A stretch of DNA of 64,000 nucleotides from Candidatus Moraniibacteriota bacterium (GTDB taxonomy: Bacteria; Patescibacteriota; Minisyncoccia; Moranbacterales; UBA1568), in contig JBPOHW010000001.1 in NCBI GenBank assembly GCA_052035095.1, forward strand, positions 44,857 through 108,856. The letters are read 5' to 3'. A program made the position numbers and the translations under genes. Every line of letters starts with the position of its first letter. Positions within the stretch are counted from its first letter, which is position 1. Under the pieces are notes generated by a model. The model was not told the DNA's origin. It saw nothing but the letters and a program-made list of their open reading frames with translations, and ran no database searches. Shown in pieces: positions 47,193 through 53,324 of this stretch.

Positions 47193-47231
47193 ATAAGCTG
47201 GGGCTGTGGGATAAAGTTGGAATATATTTGG
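47193..47231. repeat. repeat B (partial copy of A/C)
   Basis: ataagctggggctgtgggataaagttggaatatatttgg. Confidence 0.5.
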
Positions 47232-47355
47232 ATCGGTGTCCAACATTCATTGATTTGTTTGATTGTACGGTAAATTTTTGAAAAATAAAAACGACCTCTT
47301 GAGGCGGGTCGTAGTAGCGCTTGCGGATTGTAAGCGCAGCCTGTATGGAGAACAT

Positions 47356-47688
47356 CTATTTTATCGGCAATCGTTTATAGATATCATGAGGAAGAAACTC
47401 AAGTGCTATCGATTCCGGAACCCCTGCCTCAATGAGGTTTCTTACGATTCCGAGTGCGAGAGAGACAAGGTGCTGCACAGCGAATTTCCCGGGACCGATG
47501 CTGGAGAATGCACTGGCTCCATTGTCAGGTTGCATAATGGAAACATCAGCATTTTGAGAAAGCCACTCCGCATATTTGGGCGGTATTGTGACAGAAACCT
47601 CTTCATAAAAAGGATCCATGAGTCCAACATCTCTGACGCCGGTAACTTCGACGAGCGTATCTTCTATAATTTTCTCATAATCAAACAT
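47356..47688 (-). CDS. hypothetical protein
   Basis: 110-aa ORF; no motif recognised. Confidence 0.45.
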   Translation of the reverse strand: MFDYEKIIEDTLVEVTGVRDVGLMDPFYEEVSVTIPPKYAEWLSQNADVSIMQPDNGASAFSSIGPGKFAVQHLVSLALGIVRNLIEAGVPESIALEFLPHDIYKRLPIK

Positions 47689-47818
47689 GGCGCTTCTCCT
47701 TTTGGGTTGTTGAGGGACTTGTCCAAGTTGGACTCAACATGATAACAAATGGAATGCTTGGATGTCAATCCCGCGCTATGAAGGTTTCAAAGTAGCGCTT
47801 GTTTTTTTGCAGACACCG

Positions 47819-47884
47819 TAGCTGGGGCTGTGGGACGAAGTTGGAATGTATTTATTCGGGCTTCCTGCTGAAATTATCGCATAG
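47819..47884. repeat. repeat C
   Basis: tagctggggctgtgggacgaagttggaatgtatttattcgggcttcctgctgaaattatcgcatag. Confidence 0.65.
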
Positions 47885-48114
47885 GCTTGAGTTTTTTGCT
47901 ATCCATGATGGATTGCTTGCTAGTAAAGAGAAAGTTTCGACCCATTTTGTACAGAAATGCCTCTACAAAGCCACAAATGTTAATGGTCATTGACAGAAAT
48001 ATGATGATATGCTATATTTCTCAGTCATGGCGCGTCTATACCTAGACTCAAATCCATGACCCTCCCCGCAGGGTTTTGCGGCAATAGCACATTCCAAATT
48101 TGGGAGATAGAAAC

Positions 48115-48792
48115 ATGAGTATCTACGTCTACGAACCCTCTTGCGGTGAAAACATTGGTGAAACCGCGAAGAGGATGGCCATCTATGCCGTTACTGGTAG
48201 GGAGACGGTGACGGCGATGTTCAACGACATTCAACTCACTGCAAATCCCGGCGACAATGCTGACACAATCGTGCAGTATTATAACGCCGAGTGCGAACGC
48301 CGTCACGAGGAGTATGTCAACTCTTCGGAGTACAAGGAGAAACAACAGCAAGCCGAAGAAGCACGGCATCTTCACGAACTCATGCTTGAAGGCGCTTTAG
48401 CAGCGGCTCCCGAAAAAATGACGCTTCGAGACGAAGAGGGCTGGAAGAAAACAGTTGAGACGAACACCGACGGCTACGGTAGCGGAGTCATCCGTTTTGC
48501 TGAACGTTGGGCGCGTCTCATGGAGAGTCGTATCTCTAATGGCGACACCGTTGAAGGATGTGCCAAGGAAGCGTCCCATCTTGCCGATAATGAAGGCATC
48601 ACCGGCTTTATGTACGGGTGCGCCGTCTCTATCCTTTCGCAGGTGTGGGAATATGGTGAACAGCTTCGCCGTTGGCACAACCTCTCGACTCAACTCGGAA
48701 ACGAGGGCGAGAAAGCCAATGAAAATGGCAGTACGCTTAACCCAGCTCTCTTGTGCATTGGTCAATCTGATAACAACGACAGTGCGCAATAA
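48115..48792 (+). CDS. hypothetical protein (element cargo)
   Basis: ATG at 48115 with GGGAGA 7 nt upstream. 225 aa. Followed by a terminator hairpin. Confidence 0.5.
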   Translation: MSIYVYEPSCGENIGETAKRMAIYAVTGRETVTAMFNDIQLTANPGDNADTIVQYYNAECERRHEEYVNSSEYKEKQQQAEEARHLHELMLEGALAAAPEKMTLRDEEGWKKTVETNTDGYGSGVIRFAERWARLMESRISNGDTVEGCAKEASHLADNEGITGFMYGCAVSILSQVWEYGEQLRRWHNLSTQLGNEGEKANENGSTLNPALLCIGQSDNNDSAQ

Positions 48793-48823
48793 GTAACGCG
48801 GACTTCGTGAATCAGTGAATCAC

Positions 48824-48865
48824 GAGACTCCTTGCAGATAACAATTCTGCTTGGAGTCTTTTTCT
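48824..48865 (+). terminator. terminator hairpin
   Basis: gagactccttgcagataacaattctgcttggagtctttttct. Confidence 0.5.
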
Positions 48866-49147
48866 ATATCAATGTCCAGAATTTGACAAATGTCAATTTC
48901 TGATATAGCGTGTCCTTGGAAACTTAAAAACCGAATCCATTCCCTCGTCGCTATACTGTGCCAGCGACCTTCTATAAATTACACTACACACATTACACGT
49001 CTTTACCTATACACATTTTTTTTCAATAACATTCACAAAAACATTCAAAACATTACCAAGGGCACTTCAATCATTACATTTGGGAAAACCTTGTCCAGAT
49101 TGAAGCCTACGCAGTGTTTTTGAGTATTTTTGATACTAATCACCAGA

Positions 49148-49180
49148 AAACCGACTTCAATCTGAAGGTCGGTTTTTTTG
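49148..49180 (+). terminator. rho-independent terminator
   Basis: aaaaccgacttcaatctgaaggtcggttttttt. Confidence 0.6.
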
Positions 49181-49208
49181 TTTCCCGAAATTATTGAGTT
49201 TCGGGAAC

Positions 49209-49502
49209 ATGACACAGGTATTTAGCCAAACACTTCGAAACCAAATCAAAGCGTACTTTGAAAAACGCCACTCTTTAACAATTTCCGACAACAAAGCCGA
49301 CGAATATTTGCATTCATTGGATGGTTTGTGTTCGGCACTCGGTACCCGTTCTCCTGTGGCTTCCGGTGAAACAAGGTTTCCGAAGGAAACCTACAGGGGC
49401 ACCCGCATTTCCCGAGTGCGGGTCAAGGTGGAGGCGCCGAAGGCGCACGACCTTGACGCGCCAGCGAGGGAAATGCAAGCACCCGGTGTTCCTCTCTCTT
49501 AA
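49209..49502 (+). CDS. small hypothetical protein upstream of rep (possible regulator or RDF)
   Basis: MTQVFSQTLRNQIKAYFEKRHSLTISDNKADEYLHSLDGL... The C-terminal half is Arg-rich and doubtful. Confidence 0.3.
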   Translation: MTQVFSQTLRNQIKAYFEKRHSLTISDNKADEYLHSLDGLCSALGTRSPVASGETRFPKETYRGTRISRVRVKVEAPKAHDLDAPAREMQAPGVPLS

Positions 49503-49535
49503 CTTGATTCTAAACACACATCTACAGAATTTCGT

Positions 49536-50270
49536 ATGGTATTTTATTCTCGAAAACTCATTATCTCCGGCGAATATTTCGAGGTGTACGCGTACGAAAT
49601 AACCCAGAGGCGCGATTTCACGCGAAAAAAGAAACCGCTTCTGAAAAAAATGGACGACGATATCGAAGTGGGAGAAAAAGGAAAATTGGAAGTAGCCAAG
49701 CGCAAAGACTCCATTCATCGGACACGCACCGAAATACGGCGTCTCGTAAACAGCAATATGGACTTTTCAAAATTCTACACGCTGACCTTCAAAGAAAATA
49801 TCAAAGAAGTAAACATCGCCAACAAGCATTTCAACAAATTCATCATGCGCATGGAGTACCGCTATGGAAAATTCATCTACCTTGCCGTCATCGAGTTTCA
49901 AAAGCGAGGCGCGGTGCATTATCATTTTCTCTGCAATCTTCCGTATATCGTATCCAAGGAGATTGAGAAAATATGGGGGCACGGATTTATCAAAATACGA
50001 AGAATCAAACACGTTACGAATTTGGGCGCATACTTCTGCAAGTACCTGCACAAAGACATGACTGACAAGCGGTTGTTTCGTAAAAAGAAATACTTCTGTT
50101 CAGAGAATATCGAGAGACCGACGGAAGTGTATGACAAAGAAGTCATTGAAAAACTTCTCATGCAGTATGACCTGCACGACAGGAAACCTGACTACGAAAC
50201 AAGTTTTGTGAACGAGTACACGGGAAAAGTCGAGTATAAACAATTCAAAGTAAAAGGTATCGTTGCTTGA
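49536..50270 (+). CDS. rep: rolling-circle replication initiator, HUH endonuclease superfamily
   Basis: Motif 1 FYTLTF, motif 2 HYHFL (HUH), motif 3 YFCKYLHKD with catalytic Tyr. 244 aa. Confidence 0.65.
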   Translation: MVFYSRKLIISGEYFEVYAYEITQRRDFTRKKKPLLKKMDDDIEVGEKGKLEVAKRKDSIHRTRTEIRRLVNSNMDFSKFYTLTFKENIKEVNIANKHFNKFIMRMEYRYGKFIYLAVIEFQKRGAVHYHFLCNLPYIVSKEIEKIWGHGFIKIRRIKHVTNLGAYFCKYLHKDMTDKRLFRKKKYFCSENIERPTEVYDKEVIEKLLMQYDLHDRKPDYETSFVNEYTGKVEYKQFKVKGIVA

Positions 50271-50322
50271 TATTTTCTTTTTCTTTCGTTACGGTATGAA
50301 TACCGTGAACGCTATAAACACT

Positions 50323-51792
50323 ATGAAATACATCCTCTACGCCCGAAAGTCCACAGAACAGGAAGAACGCCAAGCGATGTCCATCGAGTCGCAGGAAAAC
50401 GAAATGGTGCGTCTCGCGGAAAAGTCGGGGATTCGCATTGAGAAAACCTACAAAGAAAGCATGTCGGCGAAACAAACAGGACGACCCATTTTCAATGAAA
50501 TGCTGGACTCTCTCGGAAAGAACAAAGACTGCGTTGTATTCGCATGGAAACCCGACCGTCTTTCACGAAACATCATTGACGGCGGAAAACTGGTCGAACT
50601 TCTTGAAAGAGGAAATATCAAAGAAATTCGGACGATTGATAAAGTCATCACCGACAACCCGACGGACAAGTTTATGCTTCTCCTTGACTTCGGCGTGGGC
50701 AAGAAATATTCCGACGACCTTTCCGTGAATGTGAAACGAGGCAATCGCGCCAAACTTGAAAAAGGAGGATGGCCGGGGATTGCCCCTCTCGGGTATCTCA
50801 ATGACAAACTCAACAAAACCATCGTCGTTGACGAAGAACGCGCGCTGTATATTAAAAAAGCATTCGAACTCTACGCTATGGGAGGAAAAAGCGTCATGGA
50901 GGTGGCGAATGTTCTCTATGAGAGAGGCTTCCGTTCGCGGACGGGTCAGAAAATACACAAAAGCAAAATTCACACGATACTCTCCGACCCGTTTTACTCC
51001 GGCATGATGAAACGGAACGACGTAGTGTACCAAGGAAAACATGAACCGATAGTCTCTCACGAACTTTTCGAGAAAGTCCAAGACGTACTCTTTCGGAGAA
51101 TACACACCAAAATGCAAACGCTGTTCTTTCCGCTTCGGGGATATATCAAGTGCGGAAGCTGTGGTTGCGCGTTTACCGCAAGCCGCAAAAAAGGACACGA
51201 TTATTACTACTGCACCAACGGCAAGGGACAGTGCGAGGAACACAAGCGGTATATGCGTTCCGAGAAGATGGAAACACTTATTTCAACCGTCTTTGATGAA
51301 ATATCTTTTGACGAAGAACTCATCGAACTTGCCTACCTCGCACAAAAGGAAAGAGGAAAACACGACGAGACCTACAAAGAAGCCTCGCGCGAGACCATCG
51401 TCAAGAAGCTAGAATTTGTCTCACGGAAGGAGTCGAGGCTTCTCGAGAGTTATCTGTCCGAACTCATTCCGCAAGACGTGTACGAGGCAAAAACGAAGGA
51501 ATTGCACAACGAAAAAGAAACCTTGAACGCGCAACTTCAAAAAAGCGACCAAATGTTTGGGAACGGACTCTGTACTTTGGAACATTTGAAAAACGTGTTT
51601 TTGACCGCTAATAGAACCAAAAGTGAATTTCTCAATGCGCCGAATGAGAAAAAAGCGAAGGTGCTGGAAACAGTACTTTGGAACCTTGAAATACGAAACG
51701 GAGAAATGGCTTCGGTACGCTACAAAATGCCGTATGAGATACTCAAAAAGTCGCCCAAAAACGGCGACTTTTCTACAATGCTGGGGTGCTAG
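50323..51792 (+). CDS. large serine recombinase (integrase)
   Basis: N-terminal resolvase domain YARKSTEQEERQAMSIESQ (catalytic Ser), a recombinase domain, and a zinc ribbon CGSCGC...YYYCTNG. The last four codons (MLGC-stop) overlap the 3' end of tRNA-Gln. Alternative start at 50296. Confidence 0.8.
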   Translation: MKYILYARKSTEQEERQAMSIESQENEMVRLAEKSGIRIEKTYKESMSAKQTGRPIFNEMLDSLGKNKDCVVFAWKPDRLSRNIIDGGKLVELLERGNIKEIRTIDKVITDNPTDKFMLLLDFGVGKKYSDDLSVNVKRGNRAKLEKGGWPGIAPLGYLNDKLNKTIVVDEERALYIKKAFELYAMGGKSVMEVANVLYERGFRSRTGQKIHKSKIHTILSDPFYSGMMKRNDVVYQGKHEPIVSHELFEKVQDVLFRRIHTKMQTLFFPLRGYIKCGSCGCAFTASRKKGHDYYYCTNGKGQCEEHKRYMRSEKMETLISTVFDEISFDEELIELAYLAQKERGKHDETYKEASRETIVKKLEFVSRKESRLLESYLSELIPQDVYEAKTKELHNEKETLNAQLQKSDQMFGNGLCTLEHLKNVFLTANRTKSEFLNAPNEKKAKVLETVLWNLEIRNGEMASVRYKMPYEILKKSPKNGDFSTMLGC

Positions 51793-51851
51793 GATTCGAA
51801 CCTAGGATCATGGGACCAGAACCCATTGCCTTACCGCTTGGCTACACCCCA
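51781..51851 (-). tRNA. tRNA-Gln (anticodon CUG)
   Basis: Reverse complement UGGGGUGUAGCCAAGCGGUAAGGCAAUGGGUUCUGGUCCCAUGAUCCUAGGUUCGAAUCCUAGCACCCCAG folds as a cloverleaf. Anticodon loop is UUCUGGU and the T-loop is GGUUCGAAUCC. Closely resembles bacterial tRNA-Gln. Confidence 0.8.
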
Positions 51852-52111
51852 ATAATCTCTAACTCTTCCAAGATATCACGTAATTGTTGCTTTAAGAATC
51901 GCTTCCCTTCAGTTGTCTTCAAATAACGTTCCCGCCTTTCGGCATCACTTTTCTTGAGATACGCTTCGTAATGAATAAGCTTCACTGGCAATCTCGTGCT
52001 CGTAAAATCAGCATTTCCCTCATGATGCTCTGCAATTCTTCTTTTCAAATCGCTTGTATAGCCAGTATAAAGTTGTTTGTTGTTGAGAAGAAGAATGTAT
52101 ACGTAGAACAT
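51842..52111 (-). CDS. GIY-YIG nuclease superfamily protein (small, about 90 aa)
   Basis: MFYVYILLLNNKQLYTGYTSDLKRRIAEHHEG is the GIY-YIG motif. The stop overlaps the tRNA 5' end by about 10 nt. Confidence 0.6.
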   Translation of the reverse strand: MFYVYILLLNNKQLYTGYTSDLKRRIAEHHEGNADFTSTRLPVKLIHYEAYLKKSDAERRERYLKTTEGKRFLKQQLRDILEELEIIGV

Positions 52112-52178
52112 ACAGAAAAATACAGCAAAGGAAGGATTCGCCATGTCATTCGACATGGCGCCCCGTCGGATGACGGGG

Positions 52179-52233
52179 CGAACCTAGGATCATGGGACCA
52201 GAACCCATTGCCTTACCGCTTGGCTACACCCCA
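52179..52233 (-). repeat. 55-nt duplicate of the 5' part (nt 1-55) of tRNA-Gln
   Basis: cgaacctaggatcatgggaccagaacccattgccttaccgcttggctacacccca is identical to 51797-51851. Confidence 0.75.
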
Positions 52234-52295
52234 AGAATATTTTAATTGCCTTACCCGCCTCGACTCGTTGAAGCTCATCTTCGGCGAGGCGGGCC

Positions 52296-52312
52296 ACTTG
52301 GCTACACCCCAA
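52296..52312 (-). repeat. third short copy of the tRNA-Gln 5' end plus flank
   Basis: cttggctacaccccaagaat, compared with 52218-52238. Confidence 0.5.
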
Positions 52313-52394
52313 GAATTTTTCAAAAGAAAAGGGAGGACGCGATGCCCTTCCCGGATAATAGCCAAAAATTGAGGAAAAATCAAGGTGATTCGCG

Positions 52395-53324
52395 CTATAT
52401 CTTCATATAGCGACGGACGGCGAGGAAGCCGCTCAAGGAGCCGATGAAAATACCAAGGGTAAACAGAATAAGGAAAATCCAAAAAAGATTGGCAGTGAAT
52501 GATCCCATAAGGCCGGTTCCCTCGATCATACTTCGCGTAAAGGGATTGAAACGCTGGAAGGAAATGTAGGCGTAGAGAAACACTACCGATACGAGAGAGG
52601 CGATACTTCCGTAGAGAATGCCTTCGACGACGGAGGGGGTGCGCACGTAGAGATTTGACGCGCCGACCAAGCGCATAATCTCAAAGTCTTCGCGTCTGGA
52701 AAACATCGTGAGGCGAATGGTATTGAACGTGACGAGAAACGCGATAAGGAGGAAGATAACACCGAGAATCGCTCCCTGCCGGATCACTTCGCGATTTATG
52801 GCGGTGAGCTGATTTATGATAGACTCATTCTCTCGATAGTTGAGACGGAAAATATCGTTTCTAAATGAGGACTGTTCGATGGCGTCGTTGATGACACGAT
52901 ATTCTTCCGGCGTCCGTGCCTTGATCGAGAGCGAGGCGTAGAGCGGATTCTCACCGATTTCTTCGAGCGCCTGTTCGATCACGTCTTTATTTCCCGCCGC
53001 TTCGCTCTGCGCGCGGAACTTTTCGAGTGCCGTTTCGCGAGAGGTATAGGAAATATCTCGAATTTCGCGATATTTCTTCAACTCGGACTGAATGGCGAGG
53101 ATACGTTCTTCGCTCACGTCCGCATCAAACGACACAGTGATATCCATTTTTTCCTCGAGATTTTTCAGAATGGACCGCGTCGCCAACGCTTCGACACCCG
53201 CGAGCCCGATTACAAAAAGCGCGAGCGCGATTGTCAGAATGGCGGACACCGAGAGCCAGCCGCTCCGCACAAAACTTCGCCCTCCCTCTCGAATCGCCCT
53301 GATAAGTTTTATTCCTTTTGGCAT
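52395..53324 (-). CDS. ftsX: cell division ABC permease-like protein FtsX
   Basis: N-terminal TM, large periplasmic loop, three C-terminal TM segments. Confidence 0.85.
   Translation of the reverse strand: MPKGIKLIRAIREGGRSFVRSGWLSVSAILTIALALFVIGLAGVEALATRSILKNLEEKMDITVSFDADVSEERILAIQSELKKYREIRDISYTSRETALEKFRAQSEAAGNKDVIEQALEEIGENPLYASLSIKARTPEEYRVINDAIEQSSFRNDIFRLNYRENESIINQLTAINREVIRQGAILGVIFLLIAFLVTFNTIRLTMFSRREDFEIMRLVGASNLYVRTPSVVEGILYGSIASLVSVVFLYAYISFQRFNPFTRSMIEGTGLMGSFTANLFWIFLILFTLGIFIGSLSGFLAVRRYMKI

Follow-up and report, generated by a model that had tools for sequence, protein, structure and literature searches.

The 64,000-nucleotide (nt) stretch of Candidatus Moraniibacteriota DNA analysed here, hereafter the window, carries on its minus strand, beyond ftsX, a tRNA-Gln gene that directly adjoins a small gene for a GIY-YIG nuclease, with a palindromic hairpin pair and displaced pieces of the same tRNA gene lying upstream (Table 1). 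In the following we describe this arrangement, referred to as the cassette, compare it with loci and contigs from other genomes, which are labelled with L-numbers (L001, L209 and so on), and weigh the explanations that can be put forward for it.

Table 1. The tRNA-Gln locus of the window and the element adjoining it, in window coordinates.
Feature	Position	Strand	Remarks
ftsX	52395-53324	-	Upstream of the tRNA-Gln locus
Terminator-like hairpin and T-run 3′ of ftsX	52320-52351	-	Native 5′ flank of the tRNA locus; homologous flank in L209, L204 and L216
Fragment 3a: tRNA-Gln nt 1-18 (C16T)	52294-52311	-	Oldest displaced 5′ piece, at the native position
Hairpin in the D-loop of fragment 3, 38 nt (40 with an ambiguous GG)	52256-52293	-	Not of the hairpin-pair type
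Fragment 3b: tRNA-Gln nt 17-27	52245-52255	-	Repeat match
11-nt spacer TAAAATATTCT	52234-52244	-	Similar to the native 5′ flank TGAAAAATTCT
Fragment 2: displaced exact copy of tRNA-Gln nt 1-55	52179-52233	-	Last letters are GGTTCG of the T-loop
38-nt palindromic hairpin pair	52141-52178	strand-neutral	CCCCGTCATCCGACGGGG 52161-52178, CG 52159-52160, CCATGTCGAATGACATGG 52141-52158; CG on either side
CGAATCCT	52133-52140	-	tRNA nt 54-61 resumed beyond the hairpin pair; short arm of the displaced copy
GIY-YIG (UPF0213/Slx1-like) nuclease coding sequence, 89 amino acids	51842-52111	-	Mechanical open reading frame reaches 52156
Intact tRNA-Gln(CUG)	51780-51851	-	nt 1-55, cassette-side copy; nt 56-72, resident 3′ part
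Integrated element, ~4 kb	47821-51779	+	Adjoins the tRNA-Gln 3′ end; in L209, absent from L204 and L207
Large serine recombinase	50263-51792		Last codons overlap the tRNA 3′ end
Rolling-circle Rep	49536-50270		PF23343
Tad4-like protein	48100-48792		Pfam 'Type I Thoeris inhibitor Tad4', E = 4e-33
Two att-like repeats GCTGGGGCTGTGGGAYRAAGTTGGAAT	47197-47223, 47821-47847	+	Share GCTGGGG with the tRNA 3′ end

The sole full tRNA gene of the region, a tRNA-Gln(CTG) on the minus strand, was identified by both ARAGORN and Rfam, which gave one call each. A preliminary description of this DNA, made from the sequence alone, had placed three pieces of this gene in tandem on the same strand, the second being an exact copy of tRNA nt 1-55, and this holds: positions 52179-52234 are identical to 51797-51852 at 56 of 56 positions (BLAST E = 1e-26), covering tRNA nt 1-55 plus one flank base, and the match can be stretched to 60 nt at the cost of one mismatch. 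Fragment 2 is not a second, different tRNA, because its score against the Rfam tRNA model (26.9 bits) falls below the gathering score of 29 bits. In the window (52173-52233, minus strand) the 5′ arm of hairpin 1, CGCCCCG, is able to pair with the acceptor 5′ strand of fragment 2, and the resulting tRNA-like fold without a T-arm lies behind these 26.9 bits; the pairing is absent at other loci (compare L010) and is probably due to chance. The first 15 nt of the tRNA-Gln gene occur three times in the window, where 0.01 occurrences would be expected by chance. The third piece, earlier taken for a 20-nt copy, is present and larger than that. Positions 52297-52316 are identical to fragment 2 and its flank (20 of 20) and, because the stretch listed as fragment 3b also repeats nt 17-27, fragment 3 as a whole corresponds to tRNA nt 1-27 with a hairpin of 38-40 nt in its D-loop.

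In one register the cassette is a unit of 382 bp (51797-52178), made up of the 38-nt hairpin pair, an 8-nt T-loop remnant, a 21-nt AT-rich leader between CGAATCCT and the GIY-YIG gene, the 89-codon gene itself and a copy of tRNA-Gln nt -1 to 55. Its sole gene is the GIY-YIG open reading frame (ORF), no recombinase being encoded, and its insertion point in tRNA-Gln is TTCG/AA of the T-loop-coding DNA (the slash marks the point of insertion). The 327-bp spacing between partial and complete tRNA and the two hairpins within it were correctly described before; the two hairpins constitute a conserved, discrete 38-nt module located at TTCG/A of the T-loop. A search of positions 51600-52500 with Rfam yielded no group I intron or other RNA family besides tRNA, no other GIY-YIG gene and no other hairpin pair were found anywhere in the 64-kb window, and a promoter scan returned nothing convincing within the cassette.

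The preliminary assignment of the ORF to a GIY-YIG protein of about 90 amino acids (aa), with a stop codon overlapping the tRNA 5′ end, was borne out by profile searches. The mechanical ORF (51842-52156, minus strand) matches the Pfam GIY-YIG profile (PF01541) with 55 bits against a cut-off of 22.6 bits (E = 1e-14), and its TAG stop coincides with tRNA nt 8-10. The alignment of homologues puts the real start at the ATG at 52111, which gives a protein of 89 aa; the 15 codons upstream of it are translated hairpin 2. Among the matches listed, 120 of 120 homologues contain PF01541, and residues Y20, Y30, R40, E43, H44, E64 and E76 are invariant in 32 homologues; by analogy only, the GIY/YIG tyrosines, the arginine and the glutamate may be taken as the catalytic positions. 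The nearest solved proteins by phmmer are the UPF0213 members 1YWL and 1ZG2 (E~1e-8), Foldseek likewise placed 1ZG2 and 1YWL on top with Slx1 next, and the structure predicted with AlphaFold (AF2) comprises one beta-beta-alpha-beta-alpha-alpha domain with a predicted local distance difference test score of 85.6. With its closest relatives there in both sequence and fold, and a single URI domain of ~90 aa, the protein belongs to UPF0213/COG2827 (YhbQ, YazA; the Slx1 URI branch). Identity amounts to 65-80% within the clade of cassette nucleases and to 28-37% with the solved members. No named family was found for the cassette nuclease in NCBIfam and none at E<=0.001 in PHROGs, and the phage and plasmid collections held no relative above 60% identity, the tblastn matches in phages all lying below 60% and being of the UPF0213 type. 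Sequence kinship to known phage homing-endonuclease families is lacking, and the 89 aa, modelled as a single domain, leave no place for the separate DNA-binding domain expected of Seg-type homing endonucleases.

The arrangement is not peculiar to the window. A search for homologues of the nuclease revealed that its architecture comes back at many tRNA genes, in hundreds of uncultured bacterial species: hundreds of homologues are 65-80% identical to the 89-aa protein, and those with a name belong to Patescibacteria (e.g. Moranbacteria, Parcubacteria). Scanning one genome per species yielded 404 homologue loci, the best 80 of which were used for the counts of architecture that follow. At 57 of the 80 a same-strand tRNA starts between -60 and +80 nt from the end of the aligned nuclease core, and at 13 a tRNA ends just 5′ of the ORF; in all, the gene for a ~85-aa GIY-YIG homologue lies directly beside a same-strand tRNA gene at 70 of the 80 loci. 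Four others run off the contig, and five of the remaining six have a tRNA 74-800 nt downstream or are part of an array. Twelve tRNA types are hit (Ser, Arg, Gln, Asn, Gly, Tyr, Cys, Pro, Ala, Thr, Lys and Phe), and a partial copy of the same tRNA stands on the far side of the ORF at most loci. In L010 the tRNA-Gln is preceded by three copies, without a difference among them, of a 394-bp unit made of tRNA nt 1-55, hairpins and ORF, and two assemblies carry cassettes at two different tRNAs each (L024 and L042; L029 and L040). There is also a mirror-image form, encountered mainly in metagenome-assembled genomes (MAGs) of Victivallales and Kiritimatiellae, in which the order is full tRNA, ORF, GGTTCG, hairpin pair, CG and tRNA 3′ part, so that the direct repeat is the 5′ part of the tRNA in the window and the 3′ part in mirror-image loci. 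In the nuclease tree, sequences cluster partially by tRNA type, with switches; the mirror form appears in several clades, and the window groups with the tRNA-Gln loci L001 and L010.

Many contigs in public assemblies end in or near cassettes (L008, L027, L039, L042, L046, L073 and L212-L218). Since exact tRNA repeats of 55-75 nt are likely to break short-read assembly graphs, cassettes are probably under-represented in MAGs. Carriage by phages or plasmids was also considered and ruled out, given the lack of close relatives in those collections and the absence of any match to the hairpin pattern in IMG/VR (0 matches).

Most of the 70 loci with a directly adjoining tRNA also have the conserved hairpin pair. 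Its 54 distinct instances align without gaps as (GGTT)CG-CCNNNGTCATYCGACNNNGG-CG-CCNNNGTCGRATGACNNNGG-CG(AATCC), the constant parts of the 38-mer are two-fold symmetric around the central CG, and the top of the hairpin, TCGAAT, is the T-loop hexamer. Each of the 54 instances is preceded by CG, and that CG is duplicated (2 nt). Insertion sites are mostly TTCG/A of the T-loop, followed by the CG of anticodon loops (Ser-CGA, Arg-TCG, Arg-GCG, Pro-CGG) and occasional positions elsewhere. The stems covary: 99.2% of cells are paired and in 13 of 14 pairs both partners vary in a compensatory way, a result matched by none of 500 shuffles. As the 54 instances had been chosen by a hairpin criterion, covariation was tested again on all GTCNNNNGAC cores, of which 107 of 158 have four of four complementary outer bases, with none in the shifted control. 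One 38-mer occurs in both orientations inside L016, and one at two different target sites inside L082.

A pattern scan of metagenomes revealed at least 119 stretches of this kind. Among the matches listed, 98 of 117 distinct metagenome instances stand in a T-loop context, and only about a third have a nuclease gene within ~170 nt or less. The units without ORF consist of a full tRNA, a gap of ~3-90 nt that includes a T-arm remnant of 6-8 nt, the hairpin pair and a 3′ part-copy, which in many cases has diverged. Arrays with a period of 70-80 nt and no nuclease gene, whose unit comprises the tRNA 3′ part, a few flank bases, the T-arm remnant and the hairpin pair, were observed 3′ of full tRNAs in L119:1380-1720, L177:8110-8400, L016:2860-3040 and L082:2450-2770. 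On the side of the ORF or spacer, local tRNA sequence continues past the hairpin for only 3-10 nt (median 5), and this short arm is of similar length at T-loop and anticodon-loop sites. That it represents an eroded full copy is unlikely, as it is equally short where the long arm is 100% identical to the live tRNA. The GGTTCG to the left of the hairpin does not belong to the element: the remnant in L121 reads TCCG, as does the local tRNA, and at anticodon-loop sites the local sequence is found.

Other hairpins were also observed in dead tRNA copies. A longer type starting with CCCGCCT sits in the D-loop of the oldest tRNA-Gln fragment both in the window (52256-52293; 38 nt, with a possible GG duplication) and in L043:2340-2385. 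Single hairpins with a GTCATACGAC core lie in the D-loop of dead tRNA-Gln copies of three distant genomes (L001:2920-2942, L009:2389-2408 and L019:179-200), with more single hairpins in anticodon loops (L009, L023); unlike the hairpin pair, the GTCATACGAC-core inserts show no CG duplication.

Orthologous loci retrieved through FtsX homologues allow the cassette to be placed against its absence. In L209 and L210 (FtsX 86% identical) the order is ftsX, terminator and a tRNA-Gln identical to that of the window at 72 of 72 positions, with the same serine-recombinase/Rep element as in the window directly after the tRNA and neither a GIY-YIG gene nor a tRNA fragment. In L204 and L205 (FtsX 82%) and in L207 and L208 (78%), ftsX and tRNA-Gln are followed by unrelated genes, and cassette, tRNA fragments and recombinase element are all absent. 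Five contigs of the same species (L211-L215) have 100% identical FtsX. L211, a short-read contig path, leads from ftsX over fragment 3 and the spacer to a complete tRNA-Gln, with whose 3′ end it stops; exactly the 382-bp unit is missing, which we read as a presence/absence polymorphism of the cassette within the species. L212-L214 end at tRNA nt 29-30 and L215 ends earlier, within fragment 3; the end points of L212-L214 fit the branching of an assembly graph at the 56-nt repeat with k=31, which we take to be the Logan setting. As in Seg-type systems, the nuclease gene lies beside its presumed target and is absent from collinear relatives (L209, L204, L207 and L211).

The comparative data agree with the proposal, put forward in the preliminary description, that a selfish GIY-YIG cassette entered the tRNA gene through homing or a transposition-like insertion with serial duplication of its target; what had been regarded as the footprint of such an event looks, however, like an intact cassette. 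We consider it reasonably probable that the window holds a complete copy of a recurrent selfish cassette that invades tRNA genes, restores its target and moves in a homing-like manner, cleavage and mobility being the parts supplied by reasoning. The best explanation of the locus is that the live tRNA was rebuilt from the 5′ copy of the cassette and the resident last 17 nt, that the resident 5′ part (52179-52233) was displaced upstream, where it persists as a non-functional piece with the hairpins at its end, and that an earlier round left fragment 3, since eroded.

From the anatomy, recurrence, insertion site, stem covariation and presence/absence demonstrated above we infer a mechanism covering nuclease specificity, homing, the role of the hairpins and co-transcription. 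By analogy with SegB, the phage T4 homing endonuclease discussed below, the nuclease would cut cassette-free tRNA genes at a loop CG with a 2-nt stagger, repair of the break would copy the cassette from a filled allele, and the cassette's own tRNA part would rebuild the gene after insertion. Cutting of the live copy followed by repair out of register could generate tandem units, as in L010, as well as relics in series, of which fragment 3 would be one. The hairpin pair would split the target in the displaced copy, so that no cut is made between the direct repeats, where an intact target would invite deletion of the cassette by single-strand annealing. Because the cassette parts the tRNA from its native upstream region and the ORF always shares the strand of the tRNA, with its end at or within tRNA nt 1-10, ORF and tRNA probably form one transcript, which would start at the native upstream promoter; in the window, processing by RNase P would then cut off the stop codon of the nuclease. 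In L082 the live tRNA-Pro (L082:2378-2449) has the T-loop TTCAATT, and its dead copies (2474-2530) read TTCG, hairpins, CGATT; this change of the target CG may be a mutation that confers resistance.

Several observations weigh against this account. The T-loop of the live tRNA in the window is still an intact TTCGAA, which leaves the immunity of the cassette allele unexplained, and only L082 shows a changed live T-loop. A single domain of ~85 aa, with no DNA-binding domain and no PHROG family, offers no evident means of sequence recognition, and cleavage by the nuclease and its cut site are inferred. The evidence from L211 is that of a short-read contig path. Simple homing is insufficient for the hairpin pairs of metagenomes, most of which, among the matches listed, have no nearby nuclease gene and occur in compact units. 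Finally, the short arm measures 3-10 nt even in apparently recent copies, and its constancy suggests a coupled cut-and-duplicate mechanism that goes beyond simple homing.

Another explanation, in our estimate an unlikely one, takes the 38-nt hairpin pair as the true mobile unit, a miniature palindromic transposon with the GIY-YIG protein as its transposase. Cuts would be made at the CG by or inside the hairpin loops, the self-complementary CG ends would religate in either orientation, the tRNA part-duplications and the position of the gene would be by-products of repair, and selection would keep insertions in spare copies. The discreteness of the 38-mer, its occurrence in either orientation and in the T-loop, the anticodon loop and the D-loop, the 2-nt CG duplication, the CG flanking each hairpin and the mimicry of the T-loop by the top TCGAAT are all as such a transposon would have them, as are the 70-80-nt arrays, the greater number of ORF-less than ORF-bearing copies among the matches listed and the Slx1-like fold, given that Slx1 cuts branched and stem-loop DNA. 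What this explanation leaves unaccounted for is the place of the nuclease gene against a complete same-strand tRNA and the local tRNA part-copy that accompanies nearly every instance. Nor are the pairs dispersed as a mobile repeat of the REP (repetitive extragenic palindromic) or MITE (miniature inverted-repeat transposable element) kind would be, the 64-kb window containing one and all others being confined to tRNA-derived sequence. We know of no GIY-YIG transposase of such a kind.

It is very improbable, by comparison, that nothing mobile is involved and that an ordinary host GIY-YIG gene happens to lie upstream of tRNAs, with the fragments produced by slippage or unequal crossing-over. UPF0213 genes are indeed widespread single-copy host genes, and direct repeats of 56 nt can grow and shrink by unequal recombination, but such a process fails to account for presence and absence among close relatives with an identical tRNA, for 12 tRNA types and sometimes two tRNAs per assembly (L024/L042; L029/L040), or for a conserved hairpin module at a fixed target motif. 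In addition, cassette proteins of Moranbacteria and Parcubacteria are 70-80% identical to that of the window, as against only about 41-47% for FtsX in the named Moranbacteria, a comparison that is suggestive only.

Slightly less credible still is an explanation at the level of RNA, with the hairpin pair as an intron-like insert of pre-tRNA, or with a hairpin RNA that controls or inactivates the nuclease, after the manner of the repeat RNA in type III toxin-antitoxin systems. The stems covary as those of a functional RNA or a single-strand structure would, and the hairpins of the window lie in what is presumably the 5′ leader of the mRNA for the nuclease. In-silico removal of the hairpin pair, however, gave a tRNA call at only 9 of 190 junctions; because removal so rarely restores a call, the pair is not an intron of live genes, and with no match to an Rfam intron or other family the locus shows the marks of neither a group I nor a bulge-helix-bulge tRNA intron. 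The mirror form has its hairpins 3′ of the ORF, most cases among the matches listed have no ORF at all, and GIY-YIG enzymes are DNA nucleases.

The remaining explanation starts from the element that adjoins the 3′ end of the tRNA. The preliminary description had placed the cassette directly beside the integrase-associated end of the tRNA; a recombinase element does adjoin it, and is an independent insertion, since L209 has this element without the cassette and most cassette loci appear to lack it. The two att-like repeats bracket a ~630-bp remnant (47197-47820) of an earlier element and suggest two successive integrations. A link between cassette and recombinase element was ruled out by L209, which has the element only, as against L204 and L207. 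The least credible view of all is that the fragments are attachment-site relics of integrase-driven elements such as this neighbour, with the GIY-YIG gene as left-over cargo. In its favour, an element with a large serine recombinase stands next to this tRNA, and partial duplication of the target tRNA gene is a classic trait of integrative elements. Against it, the duplication here involves the 5′ part, at the tRNA end that faces away from the recombinase; no recombinase gene lies within the 382 bp; L209 combines the recombinase element with neither cassette nor fragments; and more than 70 cassette loci share the same design (integrases were not searched for there).

Among known systems, the selfish cassette that we favour comes closest to SegB of phage T4, a free-standing GIY-YIG homing endonuclease with a 27-bp site that includes an 11-bp motif of the T-psi-C stem-loop and is cut with 2-nt overhangs (PMC2330249); SegB drives tandem amplification of tRNA and segB by homologous recombination and microhomology (PMC13096335). 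Both are free-standing GIY-YIG genes in a tRNA gene setting, a tRNA gene cluster in the case of SegB, and differ in presence between close relatives. SegB, however, is phage-borne, whereas the cassette nuclease is chromosomal (Patescibacteria, and MAGs of Victivallales and Kiritimatiellae) and is a ~85-aa protein of the UPF0213/Slx1 branch without a DNA-binding domain or a PHROG match; and the part-duplication that rebuilds the target and the 38-nt hairpin pair at TTCG/A are undescribed for SegB. Integrative elements that target tRNA genes, such as phages and integrative and conjugative elements, resemble the cassette in that an element-borne copy restores the tRNA, a direct repeat is displaced (56 nt and exact in the window) and sub-sites lie in the anticodon- and T-loop. 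They differ from it in that the cassette is only 382 bp long, contains no integrase or other recombinase gene, duplicates the 5′ part in the window and has a junction marked by a 38-nt palindromic insert and a CG duplication.

Endonuclease ORFs of fungal mitochondria (e.g. in Allomyces atp6) reportedly follow the same logic, with a carried duplicate restoring the target and the original piece left as a pseudogene. They are said to differ in their organellar protein-coding targets, full-length endonucleases and lack of a hairpin module, the window having instead the 5′ part of a tRNA replaced. Short covarying palindromic hairpins together with a small single-domain nuclease gene are likewise reminiscent of REP/REPIN-RAYT and IS200/IS605 systems, in which, however, the nuclease is of the HUH type instead of GIY-YIG and the hairpins occur genome-wide instead of in tRNA-derived sequence only. 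Slx1, whose fold matches that of the cassette nuclease, is a structure-selective nuclease for branched DNA and founded the family to which YhbQ and YazA also belong (PMC7017083); members of UPF0213/YhbQ-YazA/Slx1 are host genes with no reported tie to tRNA genes, hairpin modules or mobility.

Full-text searches of the literature, with a coverage that excludes most subscription journals, yielded no account of such an arrangement. A GIY-YIG homing nuclease aimed at a T-loop motif is already known from SegB, as is target-restoring duplication from integrative elements. The apparent novelty lies in the joint occurrence of a minimal UPF0213/Slx1-like nuclease, a symmetric 38-nt hairpin at TTCG/A, replacement of half a gene in either polarity and a wide spread over Patescibacteria and the PVC (Planctomycetes-Verrucomicrobia-Chlamydiae) group. 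There is a fair chance that the cassette deserves treatment as a class of its own. The broader proposition strikes us as evenly balanced: that a minimal Slx1-like GIY-YIG nuclease, a 38-nt hairpin module targeting T-loops and also other loop CGs, and a gene-rebuilding tRNA part-copy define a new class of mobile element, existing in autonomous and hairpin-only forms in Patescibacteria and the PVC group and acting as a major shaper of tRNA loci. The hairpin-only units and arrays suggest a non-autonomous, MITE-like partner population.

If this reading is correct, the T-psi-C loop of tRNA genes, among the most conserved DNA motifs in biology, would serve as the landing pad of a very small selfish element, and an essential single-copy gene would be invaded without an intron, through the supply of a replacement half-gene. 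It would provide the first biological context for a clade of UPF0213/YhbQ-like nucleases and present an 85-aa nuclease with a 38-nt hairpin as a compact system for structure- or sequence-specific DNA cutting. It would also account for the frequent assembly breaks at tRNA loci in genomes of the candidate phyla radiation (CPR).

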